19,227 nt of DNA from a virus. Taxonomy: Duplodnaviria; Heunggongvirae; Uroviricota; Caudoviricetes. The notes below the pieces were generated by a model, which was given only the letters and a program-made list of their open reading frames with translations, did no database searches and was not told the origin of the DNA. The stretch lies in the IMG/VR virus record IMGVR_UViG_2778261379_000001, one strand, 5' to 3'. Shown piece after piece: positions 6,107 to 16,804 of this stretch. How positions within the stretch are numbered: position 1 is the first letter of the stretch; every line of letters begins with the position of its first letter. A program made the position numbers and the translations under genes.

Positions 6107-7858
6107 ATGATTCAGGACGCTTTTGTGCGCCAGCGTGCGCGGCAACTTTACTGGCAGGGTTATCCGCCCGCAGAAATATCACGTCTGATGGGAATAAACC
6201 CGAACACGATTTATGCGTGGAAAAAACGTGACCAGTGGGATGAAACGCCACCCGTGCAGCGTGTCACGCAGTCCATCGATGCGCGCCTCATCCAGCTTAC
6301 TGAAAAACAGAATAAAACAGGCGGTGACTTTAAGGAAATAGACCTGCTGACCCGGCAGCTTAAAAAGCTGCATGATGGCCAGCCGGATGTGATGGCCGCA
6401 GGAAAGAAAGGCCGGGCGAAAAAACTCAAAAATCATTTCACGCCGGAACAGATTGCCGCACTGCGGGAAAAAATCATCAGCAGGCTGGAGTGGCATCAGC
6501 GGGGCTGGTTTGACTCCCTGACCCTTTGCAGGGAAGCCGGGATACGTAACAGGATGATCCTGAAATCCCGACAGATTGGGGCGACCTGGTATTTTGCACA
6601 GGAAGCACTGCTGATGGCGCTGCGTGACGATGTGGCGCAACCTTACCAGCGTAACCAGATTTTTTTGTCTGCGTCGCGTCGTCAGGCGTTCCAGTTTAAA
6701 AGCATTATTCAGAAGGCCGCGGCTGAAGTTGATGTGGAGCTGAAAGGGGGCGATAAAATCATCCTCTCCAACGGCGCAGAGCTGCATTTTCTCGGCACTT
6801 CTGCTGCGTCGGCACAGTCCTATACGGGCAATTTTTATTTTGATGAATTTTTCTGGGTCAGTCGCTTTGCTGAACTGCGCAAGGTGGCTGGCGCTATGGC
6901 AACCCTCAGCGGACTGCGGCGCACCTACTTCTCCACGCCATCCACCGAAACGCACGAGGCATACGCCTACTGGAACGGCGACCGCTGGAACGAGAAAAAG
7001 GCCTCGCATAAACGCCAGCGTTTTTCTGTGGACTGGAAAACGCTGCATAATGGGCTTATCTGCCCTGACCGGACGTGGCGGCAAATTGTCACGCTGGAAG
7101 ATGTGGTTAATCACGGCTGGAAACACACCGATATCGACGAAATTCGTGATGAAAACACCGAAGACGAGTTCCTCAATCTCTATATGTGTGAGTTTGTCCG
7201 CGAAGGGGAATCGGCATTTAACCTGAATATCCTGATTGGCTGCGGTGTTGACGGATACGACGACTGGAAAGACTGGAAACCTTTTGCTCCCCGCCCGATG
7301 GGGAATCGTCCGGTATGGATTGGGTATGACGCAAACGGCAGTAGTGGCAACGGCGACAGCGGCGCTGTGTCCGTGGTGGTTCCTCCGGCTGTTCCTGGCG
7401 GCCGTTTTCGAACGGTGGAGACGCGACGCGTTCAGGGGCTGGAGTTTGAAGAACAGGCCAGAGTCATTGAAGAGTTCACGTGTCGCTACAACGTGGAACA
7501 CATCGGCATTGATGTGACGGGCGGGAACGGGGAGGCTGTTTATCAGATAGTGAAGCGGTTTTTCCCTGCTGCTATTCCGTACACCTTCACGCTGTCATCA
7601 AAACGGTCGCTGGTACTGAAAATGCTGCAAATAATGCGTGCCGGGCGGTGGGAATACGATCGCGCCGAACGCGAGCTGGTCGCGGCCTTTAACGCCGTGC
7701 GTAAGGTGAAAACACCGGGCGGCTTTATCACTTACGAAACGGACCGCGCGAGGGGGATCAGCCACGGCGACCTTGCGTGGGCAACCATGCTTGCTGTCAT
7801 TAACGAACCAATTGGCGGCGAAGGAGAAAACGAGCGTTTCATGGTTATGGAGTTCTGA
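6107..7858 (+). CDS. P: terminase ATPase (large) subunit, gpP-like
   Basis: 583 aa. N-terminus LYWQGYPPAEISRLMGINPNTIYAWKKRDQWDE matches remembered P2 gpP. Stop overlaps the Q start (TGATG). Confidence 0.9.
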   Translation: MIQDAFVRQRARQLYWQGYPPAEISRLMGINPNTIYAWKKRDQWDETPPVQRVTQSIDARLIQLTEKQNKTGGDFKEIDLLTRQLKKLHDGQPDVMAAGKKGRAKKLKNHFTPEQIAALREKIISRLEWHQRGWFDSLTLCREAGIRNRMILKSRQIGATWYFAQEALLMALRDDVAQPYQRNQIFLSASRRQAFQFKSIIQKAAAEVDVELKGGDKIILSNGAELHFLGTSAASAQSYTGNFYFDEFFWVSRFAELRKVAGAMATLSGLRRTYFSTPSTETHEAYAYWNGDRWNEKKASHKRQRFSVDWKTLHNGLICPDRTWRQIVTLEDVVNHGWKHTDIDEIRDENTEDEFLNLYMCEFVREGESAFNLNILIGCGVDGYDDWKDWKPFAPRPMGNRPVWIGYDANGSSGNGDSGAVSVVVPPAVPGGRFRTVETRRVQGLEFEEQARVIEEFTCRYNVEHIGIDVTGGNGEAVYQIVKRFFPAAIPYTFTLSSKRSLVLKMLQIMRAGRWEYDRAERELVAAFNAVRKVKTPGGFITYETDRARGISHGDLAWATMLAVINEPIGGEGENERFMVMEF

Positions 7859-8904
7859 TGAGCAGAAAAAATAAAAAAGTGCGCATGAGTTCACGCATTG
7901 ATCTCGCTGATGCGCTCAGGAAAGAATCATCGCTCAGTGCATTCACATTTGATGGTCCTTATCGCCTGACCGGGCATGACCTGCTGGACAATATGTACTG
8001 TGCTGATAACGGGCGGTGGTATGAAACCCCGGTGGACTGGTACGGTCTGGCAAGAGCAGCCCGGCAAACGTCCTGGCATCAGTCTGCGCTTTACTTTAAG
8101 CGCAATGTATTACTCGGTTGCTACATCCCGCACCCGCTGCTTTCCCGGCAGGATTTCTCGGCGCTGGCGCTGGACTGGTTTGTGTTCGGTAACGCATTCC
8201 TTGAGCTTCGAAGCAATATGCTCGGCGAACCGCTTAAATTACGGCACGCCCTGGCGAAATACATGCGACGCGGAAGCGATCTTGAATCATGGTGGTATGT
8301 GCAGGATGGCAAGGACGCGTTTCAGTTTCGTCCTGGCAAAGTGTGCCACCTGATGAATCCGGATATTAACCAGGAAATCTACGGCATGCCGGAATATCTT
8401 GGCGCATTACTCTCGGCCAGCCTTTCTCATTCGGCGGACATGTTCAGAAAACTGTACTACGACAACGGATCCCACGCCGGGTGCATCATCTACATCGGTG
8501 CAGCGCAGGTAAACCGCGAAAGCATGGACTCCCTGAAAGAAACGCTACAGGGGGCACGTGGTGGTGGTGCGTTTAAAAACGTGCTCATTCATGCGCCCAA
8601 CGGGGGCAAAGAGGGGGTGCAAATTTTGCCGTTCCAGCAGATCACCGCAAAAGATGAATTCATGAATGTTAAGGCGGCATCCCGTGATGATGTGCTGGCT
8701 GCGCACCGCGTTCCGCCGCAACTGATGGGGGCGATGCCGGGCGAAAAAAGTGCGTTTGGCGATGTGGAGAAGGCAGCGCGGGTTTACGCAATTAACGAGC
8801 TGATGCCCGTTATGGAGGCTATGAAGCACATCAATGACTGGCTTGGCGAAGAGGTGATCCGTTTTAACTCTTATGCTCTTCTTGATGAAAAAACAGCCCC
8901 GTGA
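7858..8904 (+). CDS. Q: portal (capsid vertex) protein, gpQ-like
   Basis: 348 aa with blocks NGRWYE, FVFGNAFLE, DINQEIYGMPEYL, HRVPPQLMG, WLGEEVIRF matching remembered P2 gpQ. Confidence 0.9.
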   Translation: MSRKNKKVRMSSRIDLADALRKESSLSAFTFDGPYRLTGHDLLDNMYCADNGRWYETPVDWYGLARAARQTSWHQSALYFKRNVLLGCYIPHPLLSRQDFSALALDWFVFGNAFLELRSNMLGEPLKLRHALAKYMRRGSDLESWWYVQDGKDAFQFRPGKVCHLMNPDINQEIYGMPEYLGALLSASLSHSADMFRKLYYDNGSHAGCIIYIGAAQVNRESMDSLKETLQGARGGGAFKNVLIHAPNGGKEGVQILPFQQITAKDEFMNVKAASRDDVLAAHRVPPQLMGAMPGEKSAFGDVEKAARVYAINELMPVMEAMKHINDWLGEEVIRFNSYALLDEKTAP

Positions 8905-8920
8905 TGGGGCTGTCCTTTTT
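8888..8920. terminator. bidirectional intrinsic terminator between convergent Q and the 174-aa gene
   Basis: Stem ACAGCCCC (8893..8900) pairs with GGGGCTGT (8906..8913) around a 5-nt loop. A T-run follows on the plus strand (8916..8920) and on the minus strand (complement of the A-run 8888..8892). The hairpin overlaps the Q stop codon. Confidence 0.5.
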
Positions 8921-9443
8921 ACCAGAGTTGAACCATTTTCTGGGTGCCGTCAGGCTTGAGATTATCAATTTCAGAGAGAACGTAATATTGAATGGCTTCA
9001 CAAACGGTGGTGTAGGGTGAATTACCTTCTTTAAGTGGCACGATATTATTATTAACGCGAACCTGTATTTCATCGTTATACATTGCGATCGAAACAGGAG
9101 TGTGCACGAACGCGACTTCGCCAGGTGTGTCGTCAACCACCGTTTCAATACTAAAAGTCAGTTTTCGCTCATCATTGCTGCCCCGTGCTTTGGGGGTAGC
9201 GGCAGGGATCTGGGATAAAGGCATTCTGCGAAATCCTTCGGCTGCTTCCAGTCCGCATGAAACGTAATGCTGGCGATTACCGTCGCTATCTGTCCAGGTC
9301 TGTGATGGCAGCTCCAGCGAGATTTCATAAGCATCAACAATGCCCTGGGCAAGGCGTACAAGCGGGGTCAGATCTTCATTGCGGCGAAAGCTCTCCTTTA
9401 CCTGCTCCCGTTTTTCTCTTAACTGCTTGTAATTAATGACCAT
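8919..9443 (-). CDS. hypothetical protein, 174 aa (orphan accessory gene convergent with Q)
   Basis: Start taken at ATG 9443 with SD GGAGG 7 nt upstream (MVINYKQLREKREQVKESF...). The track start 9482 is a GTG. No motif I recognise. Ends in the shared terminator hairpin. Confidence 0.55.
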   Translation of the reverse strand: MVINYKQLREKREQVKESFRRNEDLTPLVRLAQGIVDAYEISLELPSQTWTDSDGNRQHYVSCGLEAAEGFRRMPLSQIPAATPKARGSNDERKLTFSIETVVDDTPGEVAFVHTPVSIAMYNDEIQVRVNNNIVPLKEGNSPYTTVCEAIQYYVLSEIDNLKPDGTQKMVQLW

Positions 9444-9542
9444 AAGACAGCCTCCATTGATTTCTTTGCTCGTATTTTGCACTTATGAAGTATGGTCGGC
9501 AAGGTGCCGTATCGCTGACGCGCTTCGCTTGTCTGCTGCTTC

Positions 9543-9571
9543 GCCGGGGCATAAAAAATTTATGCCCCGGC
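9543..9571. repeat. perfect 13-bp-stem palindrome GCCGGGGCATAAA/TTTATGCCCCGGC with 3-nt loop
   Basis: Read directly from the sequence. No T-tract on either side, so not a classical intrinsic terminator. Lies about 100 bp upstream of the 174-aa gene start. Confidence 0.5.
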
Positions 9572-9848
9572 TCTCCAGCTCCTGTATCAATCAGATAATT
9601 TCACGACGCCTTCCAGTTTATCGCCACCATCGACGGTCAGACTCTTACGCAATTCCACCGCGTTGACTGCATGTTCTCGCTGCCTCAGTGCGATTTTGAC
9701 GGCCTTACCTTTCACCCCATCAAATCAAAAGCCCTCACGCCTTTTTCATGCTCAGCGTGAGAAATATGGCCATTCTGTTGTGTCTCTGCGACATCGTTCA
9801 GGGAATGCTATTTACCCCCTGAAACGCGGGCTGTTCCCCCGTCACCTG

Positions 9849-9872
9849 CGCGCAGAAAAAGCGCGTTTTTTT
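9849..9872 (+). terminator. candidate plus-strand intrinsic terminator
   Basis: CGCGC-AGAAAAA-GCGCG followed by TTTTTTT. No convincing coding ORF lies upstream on the plus strand. Confidence 0.35.
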
Positions 9873-9942
9873 GTGCACGCACGGATCCTTGACGGATCCA
9901 GCCGCCATGCGGGCCGGAAGGGTAAAAAGTCGTTCAAAAAAA

Positions 9943-9969
9943 TTGTGCAAATTTGTGCACTTTTGTGCA
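9943..9969 (+). repeat. three direct TTGTGCA heptamers at exact 10-bp phasing (9943, 9953, 9963)
   Basis: Sequence reads TTGTGCAaatTTGTGCActtTTGTGCA. The last copy ends about 20 bp upstream of the candidate -35. Confidence 0.45.
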
Positions 9970-9988
9970 GGTAAGCATGCCTATATAT

Positions 9989-10017
9989 TTGACCGTGGCT
10001 TGCCTTTGATGTAGTTT
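9989..10017 (+). promoter_or_regulatory. candidate sigma70-type promoter for the AT-rich cassette
   Basis: TTGACC (9989..9994), 17-bp spacer, TAGTTT (10012..10017). Weak -10, pattern match only. Confidence 0.25.
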
Positions 10018-10069
10018 ATACGTCACAAAAACCACAAAACGTGGTTATGATTTCTATGAGGGGGTTGAT

Positions 10070-10105
10070 ATGAAAAAAATGTATGATGAATTTGATGGTT
10101 TCTAA
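10070..10105 (+). CDS. candidate 11-codon leader peptide (MKKMYDEFDGF)
   Basis: ATG preceded by GAGGGGG SD with about 6-nt spacer, stop TAA at 10103..10105, followed 20 nt later by an intrinsic terminator and then the first cassette gene. Confidence 0.25.
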   Translation: MKKMYDEFDGF

Positions 10106-10125
10106 GCTACGTTGACCTCTAATGA

Positions 10126-10152
10126 GGCGGGGATTTGCTCCCCGCCTTTTTT
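10126..10152 (+). terminator. intrinsic terminator / candidate attenuator just upstream of the cassette
   Basis: GGCGGGGA-TTTGC-TCCCCGCC followed by TTTTTT. The stop of the hairpin is 14 nt before the 10167 start codon. Confidence 0.45.
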
Positions 10153-10166
10153 ATGGATGAAATAGG

Positions 10167-10664
10167 ATGAACCCAATAACACTACAAATCATCAGCAATG
10201 CTATTGTTCTGCTTGGCGTTTTGGTTGCCATTGGAACCATTATCTACAATGTGCGTACCGCAAAAAAAACTCAAACGGCCAACTTTCTTTTTGAGAGTCG
10301 GCAAGATATGCAATATATAGAGTCATTGCATACCCTGAAACAAGTGCATCGTTCAGGCAAATCATTTCGTTCTTATGTTTTTCCTTGTGATGGTTGCATA
10401 ATAACAGATGAAGAAATGGCCGAGCGTCGAAAATTTCAATATATTTTAAATTTTTACGAGCGAGTTGCTGTAAGTATTCGTGAAGGTATTTATGATGAAA
10501 AAATGATAAAAAGAACATCTTACACAACAGTTGTAGAGACATATGATATTGCCGAGCCATTAATTAAAGCAATCAGAGAAAGCATTAATTCGGATACTAC
10601 ATATCAAGAATTCGAATGGTTAGTAAGAAGATGGAAAGCTAATCCTTTACGGAAAAACAAATAA
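10167..10664 (+). CDS. hypothetical membrane-anchored protein, 165 aa (one N-terminal TM helix plus soluble domain); first gene of AT-rich cassette
   Basis: ATG start. N-terminus ITLQIISNAIVLLGVLVAIGTIIY is a clear TM helix followed by a charged, mixed soluble region. Codon usage is strongly AT-biased relative to neighbours. No motif I recognise. Confidence 0.65.
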   Translation: MNPITLQIISNAIVLLGVLVAIGTIIYNVRTAKKTQTANFLFESRQDMQYIESLHTLKQVHRSGKSFRSYVFPCDGCIITDEEMAERRKFQYILNFYERVAVSIREGIYDEKMIKRTSYTTVVETYDIAEPLIKAIRESINSDTTYQEFEWLVRRWKANPLRKNK

Positions 10665-10703
10665 TGTTTTACCCTTTAATTTACAAGTAACACAGGGGGA
10701 AGT

Positions 10704-11546
10704 GTGACACAGAATCCGTTTTCATTTTATGACTTTTTGGGCTATCTAATTCCAGGTGGGTTATTCCTGTTTATCCTTTTTTTGTTTTCTATTGAAATTA
10801 ACCCTGTTTATATAGAAGGTATTCTTAACCATATCCTGAAATATAAAGAAATAATAAGTGTATTTATATATGTGGTATTAATCGTTCTATCATATATTTC
10901 AGGTCACTTCATATCTATTCTATCATCCTGTTTAATTGAAAAATACATGAACAGTAAACTTGGGTATCCTTCAATTTATCTGTTTTCTAAAAGAAGCTCC
11001 CTGAAAATAAAACGACATAATACTAAGTTCAGTATAGTTAATTTTATTCGTGGAGTTTTTTTATTTCCTGTATCAGCTTTTGATAAAGCAGAACATCATA
11101 AAACCACACTGCATTCTATACTTATTAAAGTCTTTTGGCCGCAAATACGAGATGGTTATATAAATGTTTTTTCTGTATCTACGCTATATCGACGTAAGGG
11201 CTTGAGGGGCGATCTTTTTCGCCTTGCTTATCATTATGTGTATGAACATTCTAAAAATCATCAGGTGAAAATGCAAAACTATGTTGCTTTGTATGGTTTT
11301 TGTAGAAACATTACATTTGTTTTTCTCGCTTCAGTCTGGTTGCTTATGTTCCTGCTCCTTCTATCCTTTTTAATAGATATAAATATCAGACTGTTACCTT
11401 TTTGTTTTCTTCTCTTGTTTTGTATTGCTGCATCCCGAGTATTTTATTATGGTTTTGTTAAGTATTATCGCCGCTATTCTCTTGAGGTTTTAATGGCATT
11501 TGCGGTACTTCAGCACGATAAAAAAACTTCGGCAATTTCATCATGA
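10704..11546 (+). CDS. hypothetical polytopic membrane protein, 280 aa (about four TM helices: two N-terminal, two C-terminal, with a central cytosolic region)
   Basis: GTG start with GGGGGA SD just upstream. Hydrophobic segments at about residues 12-29, 52-75, 197-220 and 225-245. AT-rich like the upstream gene, 39-bp gap, same strand. Confidence 0.65.
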   Translation: MTQNPFSFYDFLGYLIPGGLFLFILFLFSIEINPVYIEGILNHILKYKEIISVFIYVVLIVLSYISGHFISILSSCLIEKYMNSKLGYPSIYLFSKRSSLKIKRHNTKFSIVNFIRGVFLFPVSAFDKAEHHKTTLHSILIKVFWPQIRDGYINVFSVSTLYRRKGLRGDLFRLAYHYVYEHSKNHQVKMQNYVALYGFCRNITFVFLASVWLLMFLLLLSFLIDINIRLLPFCFLLLFCIAASRVFYYGFVKYYRRYSLEVLMAFAVLQHDKKTSAISS

Positions 11547-11557
11547 TTTGAAACATT

Positions 11558-11580
11558 GGCACCCTGTTAGCAAGGGTGCC
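11558..11580. other. hairpin GGCACCCT-GTTAGCA-AGGGTGCC between the convergent cassette and parR
   Basis: Read directly from the sequence. No adjacent T-tract on either strand. Confidence 0.3.
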
Positions 11581-11629
11581 AGAATGATGTGTTGGTCTGT
11601 ATTTTATTAGTTCACATACAATTATCAGA

Positions 11630-16482: not shown

Positions 16483-16804
16483 GGTGTGGCCCCTTGTGTA
16501 GTAAGTTGTGAAAACTCACCATCCAGAGCTGCGAAACTGTGGGTGGCGAGACGTACGAGGTTCGCAGTACCGGCTACACAAGAACCCGGCCCGACCGAAG
16601 TCGGCCCCGTACGCCCCGCCATAATTCTGACGCGAAAAAAACGTGGCAATACAGTACGCACAAAAAAACCGCTGGCGCGGTTGTGCGCTTGTGTAGTCAG
16701 CAGGCTGCGAAACCCGGCACCCGTTTTATGAGGTGCAGCGGAAATGTAACCTGACTGATTGCGGCATGGCAAGCGGTTTTTTTGTGTGTGCATGCTCTGG
16801 TTTC

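Follow-up and report, generated by a model that had tools for sequence, protein, structure and literature searches.

A conserved DEFDGF-type micropeptide gene and a terminator precede the DUF4760 gene of a P2-like Escherichia coli prophage

What is an 11-codon open reading frame (ORF) doing between a strong Shine-Dalgarno (SD) sequence and an intrinsic terminator, directly in front of a membrane-protein gene? We asked this of a stretch of 19,227 nucleotides (IMG/VR record IMGVR_UViG_2778261379_000001; hereafter the window), which as a whole is a P2-like (P88-like, Xuanwuvirus) prophage of Escherichia coli ST131. The ORF encodes MKKMYDEFDGF, and the gene after the terminator encodes a DUF4760 protein. 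The original prediction, made from the letters of the window, read this layout as translation-coupled attenuation or a riboregulated leader that would hold a potentially toxic membrane module off until triggered. Our comparison across loci points elsewhere: the mini-ORF encodes one of a family of peptides, 8-21 residues long and not described before, with an acidic-aromatic-Gly-aromatic ending, and what functions appears to be the peptide itself, not merely a switch of transcription.

The mini-ORF (ATG AAA AAA ATG TAT GAT GAA TTT GAT GGT TTC TAA) and its SD are present where they had been described (Table 1). To avoid circularity with the mini-ORF, we collected DUF4760 loci through DUF4760 protein patterns alone. 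The mini-ORF lies upstream of DUF4760 in 33 of 33 loci gathered by protein similarity alone, over 36-88% DUF4760 identity. Among representative genomes, all 21 full-length DUF4760 loci (Enterobacterales at 61-88% DUF4760 identity, Halomonadaceae at 36-41%) carry an SD-equipped mini-ORF 50-200 nt upstream that ends in D-E-[FYN]-D-[GW]-[FYL]-stop and precedes a hairpin with its T-run. The same held for 12 of 12 metagenomic DUF4760 loci as regards the mini-ORF, with variants such as MREVIDGL, ...EVFGGF, MQTNQKRDDFQGF, MTFKRDDYEGF, MNRIKRDDYEGF, and ...RVLDENDGY. All homologous mini-ORFs have an SD of the GGAGG or GGGGG type 5-9 nt 5' of the start codon; their C-terminal six residues are conserved and their N-terminal part is variable. 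It is this conservation across loci, and not the window alone, that places the mini-ORF beyond chance. Within the species, the 196-nt element is found in 299 of 5426 complete E. coli genomes.

The codons of the mini-ORF are more variable than the residues that they encode. Over the last six codons in 16 Enterobacterales loci, the amino acids are almost invariant and the third positions are split nearly evenly: GAT 11/GAC 5; GAA 9/GAG 7; GAC 8/GAT 8; GGC 6/GGT 7/GGG 1; TTC 11/TTT 4; and, for the stop codon, TAA 12/TGA 3/TAG 1. An alignment of three diverged loci (Citrobacter phage Shae_phiSM, E. coli JNEC-KY208, and plasmid pMS21199B) gave the same picture, with the same peptide, synonymous changes (GAT/GAC, AAA/AAG, GGT/GGA, TAA/TGA), and compensatory changes in the terminator stem. 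At the level of sequence, this pattern is direct evidence that purifying selection acts on the peptide. We note one natural variant: in Enterobacter pulveris (L091; L numbers are our labels for the loci compared) the stop codon is changed from TAA to TAC, which lengthens the ORF by four codons (peptide MKKAFDEFDGFYIMK), and this is the only locus in which the motif is not C-terminal. Separately, the codons ATGTATGATGAA (M-Y-D-E, 10079-10090) recur as ATTTATGATGAA (I-Y-D-E, 10488-10499) within the DUF4760 gene; this likeness to G-I-Y-D-E, the most conserved DUF4760 motif, may be a coincidence.

To see how far the linkage extends, we located eight further DUF4760 genes at 23-45% identity via exact proteins. 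Seven of the eight have a mini-ORF, and at the remaining locus (L149) none was found. Both the mini-ORF and a strong terminator are kept in Stenotrophomonas (...MSEGYEGF) and Pseudomonas (...IRDEYEGF), and a Massilia metagenome-assembled genome has the mini-ORF (MNMKFSEGWDG) with a weak hairpin. In four uncultured lineages (MSYLFNEGWDG, MRLRDGWEDI, MILRDGWEDI, and MLHDTWDD), the mini-ORF lies 3-49 nt from the DUF4760 start, with neither hairpin nor T-run between the two. Because the mini-ORF persists where the terminator is absent, the micropeptide is the constant partner of DUF4760; the terminator is an addition, present in the gammaproteobacterial lineages sampled. The motif drifts with DUF4760 divergence, from DEFDGF through DEYDWF, DENDGY, DDYEGF, DDFQGF, EGYEGF, DEYEGF, and EVIDGL to EGWDG, DGWEDI, and DTWDD, and keeps an aromatic residue between acidic residues and, usually, a glycine within the last five positions. 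A literature search for DEFDGF-type peptide motifs found no description of these peptides.

The peptide also occurs apart from DUF4760. We searched viral contigs with degenerate DNA patterns for [FY]DEFDGF-stop and [RS]DDYEGF-stop. The former matched 73 viral contigs, where an estimated <1 was expected by chance, and about half of these are DUF4760 leaders; the latter matched 14 contigs, 12 of them without DUF4760. Several settings recur. First, in lambdoid prophages an 8-codon stand-alone ORF, MYDEFDGF or MFDEFDGF, sits between a Q-like antiterminator gene and the holin gene. Second, in T4-like Karamvirus a 21-codon ORF, MFSLRKFD(A/E)ED..FFDEFDGF, followed by a terminator, lies between a-gt.2 and gp47 (L019 10681-10746, L109 849-914) and is annotated in PG7 as the hypothetical CG98_gp053. 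Third, MRDDYEGF or MSDDYEGF lies 0-135 nt upstream of the small terminase subunit gene terS in several environmental phages. In several contigs (L070, L076) the mini-ORF is the last of its transcription unit and faces a convergent gene. One stand-alone version, MLDEFEGFDEFDGF, has the motif doubled in tandem, and ...FYDEFDGF is the C-terminal tail of some members of a prophage protein family of 70-77 amino acids (aa). Side by side with these, lambdoid mini-ORFs between the Q antiterminator and holin genes range from 8 to 14 aa, and further loci with stand-alone mini-ORFs include L012, L018, L034, L128, L133, and others.

A further case comes from ~47-kb phage-plasmids of the pMS21199B type, in which a 175-bp unit (putative promoter, MKKRYDEFDGF mini-ORF, and terminator) is inserted alone. 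The unit (L007 2987-3161) is 80% identical to the window, lies at a resident terminator, and has GCCTTTTTTA at both junctions. Six plasmids have it. In another 52 related plasmids, the only portion of the query present is the one that lies downstream of the module, and the related plasmid that we aligned (L139) lacks the unit. In the plasmid copy, a 33-codon hydrophobic ORF (MATFKRWSALSLSILLHVPILAWLIARQINARL) starts at an ATG directly after the T-run. Taken together, the stand-alone copies, the doubled motif, the protein tails, and the plasmid unit fit a peptide that acts in trans better than a purely cis-acting leader.

We then considered the terminator. The hairpin GAGGCGGGGA-TTTGC-TCCCCGCCTT at 10124-10148, with T6 at 10147-10152, is the highest-ranked terminator-like site of the whole window (10 pairs, 7 of them G-C). 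It folds at -21 kcal/mol versus -10.6 +/- 2.4 for shuffles (z = -4.4; 0 of 200 shuffles equalled it). Across lineages the stems differ in sequence (GAGGCGGGG/CCCCGCCUU, GGCGGAGA/UCUCCGCC, AAUGGAGGC/GCCUCCAUU, AAGGCGC/GCGCCUU), their changes are compensatory, and the hairpin and T-run are kept. Hence, the canonical intrinsic terminator of the original prediction is real. Its position after the mini-ORF held and its distance did not, as the stop codon and the stem are 18 nt apart, not 20; the distance to the first cassette gene was correctly given as 14 nt (T-run end 10152, DUF4760 ATG 10167).

Those 14 nt are too short for a promoter between the terminator and the DUF4760 ATG, and we saw no hexamers with usable spacing. 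Because no room for a promoter is left, DUF4760 expression in this lineage would depend on read-through, and the terminator would therefore keep the membrane module low. Thus, of the proposal that the terminator holds the module off until triggered, the low level is supported by the 14-nt gap and the predicted read-through, and the triggering signal is not. A second ORF running through the terminator (AUG 10121, MRRGFAPRLFYG, UGA overlapping the DUF4760 AUG) was set aside because other loci do not conserve it. An IS421 element interrupts the 3' terminator arm (...GATTTGCTCCC|ataagcgc...) in some strains, of ST131 and otherwise, and splits the mini-ORF from DUF4760 (L009 at ~3172, L062; E. coli LS4, OX637964 (H17-H19)).

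Upstream of the mini-ORF, the hexamers TTGACC and TAGTTT are separated by a 17-bp spacer. They match the consensus at 8 of 12 positions, which is below the threshold of our promoter scan, and the counterpart of TTGACC conserved in the plasmid copy is TTGATA. Other lineages have TATAAT (L024), TAGAAT (L115, L121, L131), or TAATTT (L033, L049, L084) at a similar distance from the mini-ORF start. We infer a sigma-70-type promoter at ~9989-10017, which would start transcription at ~10024 and produce a leader RNA of ~130 nt ending at ~10152. The scan also offered an alternative promoter site, GTCACA-18-TATGAT at 10022-10051. A literature search for EC958 transcriptome data yielded nothing usable. 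A hairpin close to the predicted start of the leader RNA recurs at the same position, with unrelated sequences, in many Enterobacterales lineages, and folding z-scores of the upstream region are -2 to -3 in about half of the Enterobacterales lineages. We hold with moderate confidence that this 5' hairpin is a recurrent feature of the leader.

On these grounds we suggest, with middling confidence, that the micropeptide and DUF4760 form a two-component module in which the terminator sets a high ratio of peptide to DUF4760, as with mccA. The promoter would make the short leader RNA with its strong SD and 11-codon ORF, and most transcripts would end at the terminator. A minority would continue past it into the DUF4760 gene and the gene next in line, for the 280-aa membrane protein, neither of which would have its own promoter. 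The terminator would thereby act as a fixed valve, yielding much peptide mRNA and little membrane-protein mRNA, and not as a sensor of ribosome position. The peptide would work in trans on the DUF4760 cytoplasmic domain, as its ligand or inhibitor; direct binding and its sign (inhibition, in an antitoxin-like manner) are the most hypothetical part of this scheme.

Several points weigh against this two-component module. First, its promoter is weak by consensus and is putative, transcript and peptide are deduced from sequence, and binding is hypothetical. Second, cytosolic peptides of 8-11 residues are normally short-lived, and few are known to act in trans. Third, shared ancestry alone would also be expected to make the motif drift in parallel with DUF4760. 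Fourth, the stand-alone copies could differ in function from the DUF4760-linked ones, and the plasmid copies, being near-identical, may be a recent remnant. Fifth, the analogy to mccA-mccB covers architecture only, because DUF4760 has no enzyme-like fold in its predicted structure. Last, a conserved peptide just ahead of a gene is equally what an arrest peptide would look like.

This last point leads to the strongest alternative, in which the nascent DEFDGF peptide acts in cis and, on some signal, stalls or alters the ribosome to control read-through, mRNA stability, or DUF4760 translation, in the manner of TnaC, SpeFL, ErmL, and MgtL. The mini-ORF is directly upstream of DUF4760 in the same orientation, the conserved residues are directly before the stop codon, and in most lineages a terminator lies between the two genes. 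Many stand-alone copies are likewise the first ORF before terS or holin genes, which is a typical leader position. MgtL has N-terminal acidic residues, sequences that destabilize the ribosome, and the acidic residues near the N-terminus of the DEFDGF-type peptides resemble them.

The RNA itself argues against such control. We folded the putative leader (10024-10180) with RNAfold, and in both the minimum free energy and the centroid structure the terminator stayed intact. Neither in these folds nor across lineages did we find a conserved antiterminator or another alternative pairing with a terminator arm; the sole candidate, CCUC:GAGG, is 4 bp and is missing in Halomonadaceae and other lineages. 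RNAfold pairs the SD region with GUUGACCUCU, immediately 5' of the terminator, enclosing the mini-ORF; it predicts this topology in most lineages, and an ACCUCU core within the GUUGACCUCU region is conserved at the nucleotide level among Enterobacterales. We do not claim this helix, as it is no stronger than its controls: duplex energies reached P <= 0.05 against shuffled spacers in 4 of 42 sequences, and the longest Watson-Crick runs equalled those of reversed spacers (4.41 versus 4.27, P = 0.16).

Nor does the geometry favor a ribosome-sensing terminator. A ribosome at a stop codon covers roughly 12-15 nt downstream. Across lineages the stop codon and the hairpin are 16-48 nt apart, and a ribosome at the stop therefore cannot reach the stem; here it ends ~6 nt short. 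The leader folds and the spacing survey gave no RNA element within reach of a ribosome at the mini-ORF stop codon. The mini-ORFs contain no regulatory codon runs, only two or three scattered aromatic codons; position 5 alternates among F, Y, H, C, and Q, and N also occurs at position -3. Of the hallmarks of trp/his attenuators, the locus has the translated leader ORF and the intervening terminator, and lacks the antiterminator and the regulatory codons. Because there is no antiterminator, the spacing is beyond ribosome reach, and codon runs are missing, classical translation-coupled attenuation triggered by a signal is not supported, and the terminator-free distant lineages and the same peptide without a downstream gene tell further against it.

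The broader cis-acting alternative is also at odds with copies at operon ends, facing convergent genes, or, in the plasmids, alone; with the use of all three stop codons; and with the doubled motif and the C-terminal tails, which would be unexpected for an arrest peptide. We regard it as possible and are inclined to doubt it.

A second alternative is that the peptide, in general use among phages, targets some conserved host or phage factor, for example as the mimic of a C-terminal docking tail, and that DUF4760 is an unrelated neighbor or a guard or sensor of such peptides. The DDYEGF-type stand-alone copies outnumber the DUF4760-linked ones in viral contigs, as counted above, and copies are found in phages of unrelated kinds, namely T4-like, lambdoid, and terS-adjacent. 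Acidic residues with a C-terminal aromatic residue are also the general form of docking tails, among them SSB-Ct (DDDIPF), those of T7 gp2.5 and gp4, and the chemoreceptor NWETF. Nevertheless, near-universal adjacency to DUF4760 over 23-88% identity calls for a functional link, and the motif varies between clades although candidate universal targets are conserved. Comparison by eye with SSB-Ct DDDIPF, beta-clamp QLxLF, the RB69 polymerase tail, NrdF DDDWDF, and NWETF gave likeness and no exact match. We consider this alternative improbable.

The weakest alternative, a non-coding regulatory RNA or the terminator of an upstream unit with a fortuitous ORF, has in its favor a ~130-nt promoter-to-terminator unit of the size and shape of a small RNA gene that also stands alone in plasmids, and is hardly credible given a codon-position pattern of protein-level selection that largely refutes it, a mini-ORF that survives full turnover of the surrounding nucleotides, no Rfam family over 9850-10250 at the gathering or a permissive threshold (best SorX, 19.3 bits versus a gathering cut-off of 46.6), and no tandem or direct ToxI-like repeats in 9971-10166, the sole arrays being the cos-side TTGTGCA repeats at 9924-9969.

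Returning to the two-component module, we can also extend it into a wider proposal, which we put forward as speculation and think unlikely as a whole: that DEFDGF-type micropeptides and DUF4760 make up a membrane effector system that is gated by a peptide, new, and widespread in prophages and defence islands, that the peptide is the cognate inhibitor or ligand of a membrane-anchored, EP-domain-like sensor, and that the stand-alone phage copies (Karamvirus gp053 and the mini-ORFs before holin and terS) are counter-defence or lysis-timing copies of that ligand.

The DUF4760 protein (RefSeq WP_001068329.1) matches Pfam PF15956 over profile positions 2-141 of 141 (E = 1.8e-34, 119.3 bits versus a cut-off of 25) and falls in PHROG 2284, of unknown function. 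Its AF2 model (pLDDT 92.7) predicts a long N-terminal helix followed by an all-alpha domain, with no sign of an enzyme-like fold. In family size, 2584 clusters at 50% identity reach E <= 1e-3. PADLOC has no model for DUF4760, a BFVD fold search gave no informative match, and a literature search on DUF4760 found nothing on its function. An integrase, an S24 repressor, a NACHT-like ATPase, and a Schlafen/AlbA-type gene are among its neighbors in other loci, which points to prophage or defence-island settings. The 280-aa multi-pass membrane protein accompanies DUF4760 in E. coli-type loci only; it has a weak PADLOC match to Csx27, the type VI-B CRISPR-associated membrane protein (E = 1.1e-5).

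Table 1. Features of the DUF4760 locus and its surroundings, by position in the window
Feature	Position	Strand	Remarks
Scaffold gene gpO		-	First in gene order of the prophage
Terminase gene gpP	6107-7858	+	
Portal gene gpQ	7858-8904	+	
174-aa ORF	8919-9443	-	PHROG 5091, of unknown function; no Pfam match
cos-side conserved region			Ends with three TTGTGCA repeats, 9939-9969
-35-like hexamer TTGACC	9989-9994	+	Part of putative leader promoter
-10-like hexamer TAGTTT	10012-10017	+	Putative; 53-58 nt upstream of ATG 10070
5' hairpin AACCAC-AAAAC-GTGGTT	10030-10046	+	Near predicted 5' end of leader RNA
Shine-Dalgarno GAGGGGG of mini-ORF	10058-10064	+	5 nt before ATG 10070
Micropeptide gene (mini-ORF)	10070-10105	+	11 codons plus TAA (10103-10105); MKKMYDEFDGF; conserved C-terminal motif DEFDGF
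GUUGACCUCU	10112-10121	+	Predicted partner of SD region, enclosing mini-ORF (RNAfold)
Intrinsic terminator	10124-10152	+	10-bp G+C-rich stem, 5-nt loop, T6
DUF4760 gene	10167-10664	+	165 aa; predicted N-terminal transmembrane helix and all-alpha cytoplasmic domain; WP_001068329.1
280-aa multi-pass membrane protein gene	10704-11546	+	Lineage-specific accessory gene; PHROG 12528, function unknown
Variable island, then ParR-like and ParM genes and gpA-type replication endonuclease gene		- (latter three)	

The window is 100% identical over 9400-11600 to EC958, JJ1886, and phage vB_EcoM-705R2. Homology to relatives with other cargo (PhiR44_2, P88, and P88_4B11) ends at ~9970, and the island 9971-~11600 therefore occupies the gpQ/cos-gpA defence hotspot of P2-like phages described by Rousset et al. 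2022 (PMC9122126). The position and orientation of the locus are those of the P2 hotspot cargo between gpQ/cos and gpA (old, tin locus). The supplementary table of that paper has >160 listings of the gene set made up of WP_001068329 DUF4760, WP_000193205, and neighbors (PMC9122126). This set is not among the systems cloned or tested there, DUF4760 is unmentioned in the main text, and the mini-ORF and terminator of the DUF4760 locus are unmentioned in the paper (PMC9122126).

Other features of the surroundings are recorded here in their own right. At three TTGTGCA-containing repeats of period 10 (9924-9969) the conserved backbone ends, and the variable island follows. The deposited genome ends of phage P88_4B11 map at ~9925, ~200 nt upstream of the terminator hairpin, and the cos region is therefore probably at 9924-9969; the P2 cos 19-mer itself is absent. 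The G-rich terminator hairpin was also tried as a P2 cos site, since GAGGCGGGGA resembles GGCGAGGCGGGGAAAGCAC, and gave no match within 3 mismatches. P88_4B11 and Shae_phiSM lack the 174-aa ORF between the portal gene and the cos-side region, and this position may thus be another small variable spot. In the prophage early region, Rfam identified a C4 antisense RNA (16539-16626, - strand, 83.2 bits, E = 2e-15) and, adjoining it, the isrK Hfq-binding RNA (16662-16736, - strand, 65.2 bits, E = 3e-12).

These results matter for DUF4760 in a practical way. It is a large family of unknown function and ranks among the cargoes that the P2 defence hotspot of E. coli carries most often (>160 table entries, PMC9122126). 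A construct that begins at the annotated ATG of DUF4760 leaves out half of the proposed module together with its putative promoter and the terminator, and the way in which the system is cloned and tested should change. The peptides are missed by gene callers, absent from the literature searched, and spread over very different phages, and so provide a concrete, testable case of a putatively functional micropeptide in phage-host conflict. The locus is also a natural example for separating transcription-level from peptide-level explanations of a "leader" by recoding. The finding exceeds the attenuator proposal in interest because the supposed leader belongs to a widespread, undescribed micropeptide family tied to DUF4760.

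Among known systems, the trp/his/pheA attenuators and the TnaC, SpeFL, ErmCL, and MgtL leaders share with this lineage a short translated ORF upstream in the same orientation and a terminator in between, and arrest peptides (TnaC, SecM, SpeFL, and the Erm leaders) share a conserved peptide, most so near the C-terminus. Unlike these leaders, the locus has no codon runs, no conserved antiterminator, and a hairpin out of ribosome reach; moreover, the terminator is missing in four distant members, and the peptide is found elsewhere as a gene of its own and as the tail of larger proteins. A looser analogy may lie in type III toxin-antitoxin systems (ToxIN): a promoter-proximal, small, antidote-like product and a terminator that would limit a potentially harmful protein, on mobile elements or prophages and in a defence context. 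In contrast to ToxIN, the upstream product here is a translated peptide and not a repeated RNA, and tandem repeats are absent.

Of known architectures, mccA-terminator-mccB in the microcin C operon comes closest. There, an intrinsic terminator behind the 7-codon mccA gene gives rise to a short transcript in abundance (Zukher et al. 2014, PMC4231749), and ribosome-induced termination and transcript stability were measured (PMC4231749). The two differ in that MccA is a substrate adenylated by MccB, whereas DUF4760 is predicted to be a single-pass membrane protein without an enzyme-like fold, and MccA has no sequence relationship to the mini-ORF peptide. They agree in a very short ORF behind a strong SD (7 codons in mccA, 11 in the window), an intergenic intrinsic terminator, and no internal promoter, and in a short peptide mRNA of ~105-130 nt with a minor read-through transcript, which is predicted here. 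The likeness would extend to a peptide that is itself the functional product and not only translated, for which selection, the stand-alone copies, the doubled motif, and the protein tails argue in the DEFDGF family.

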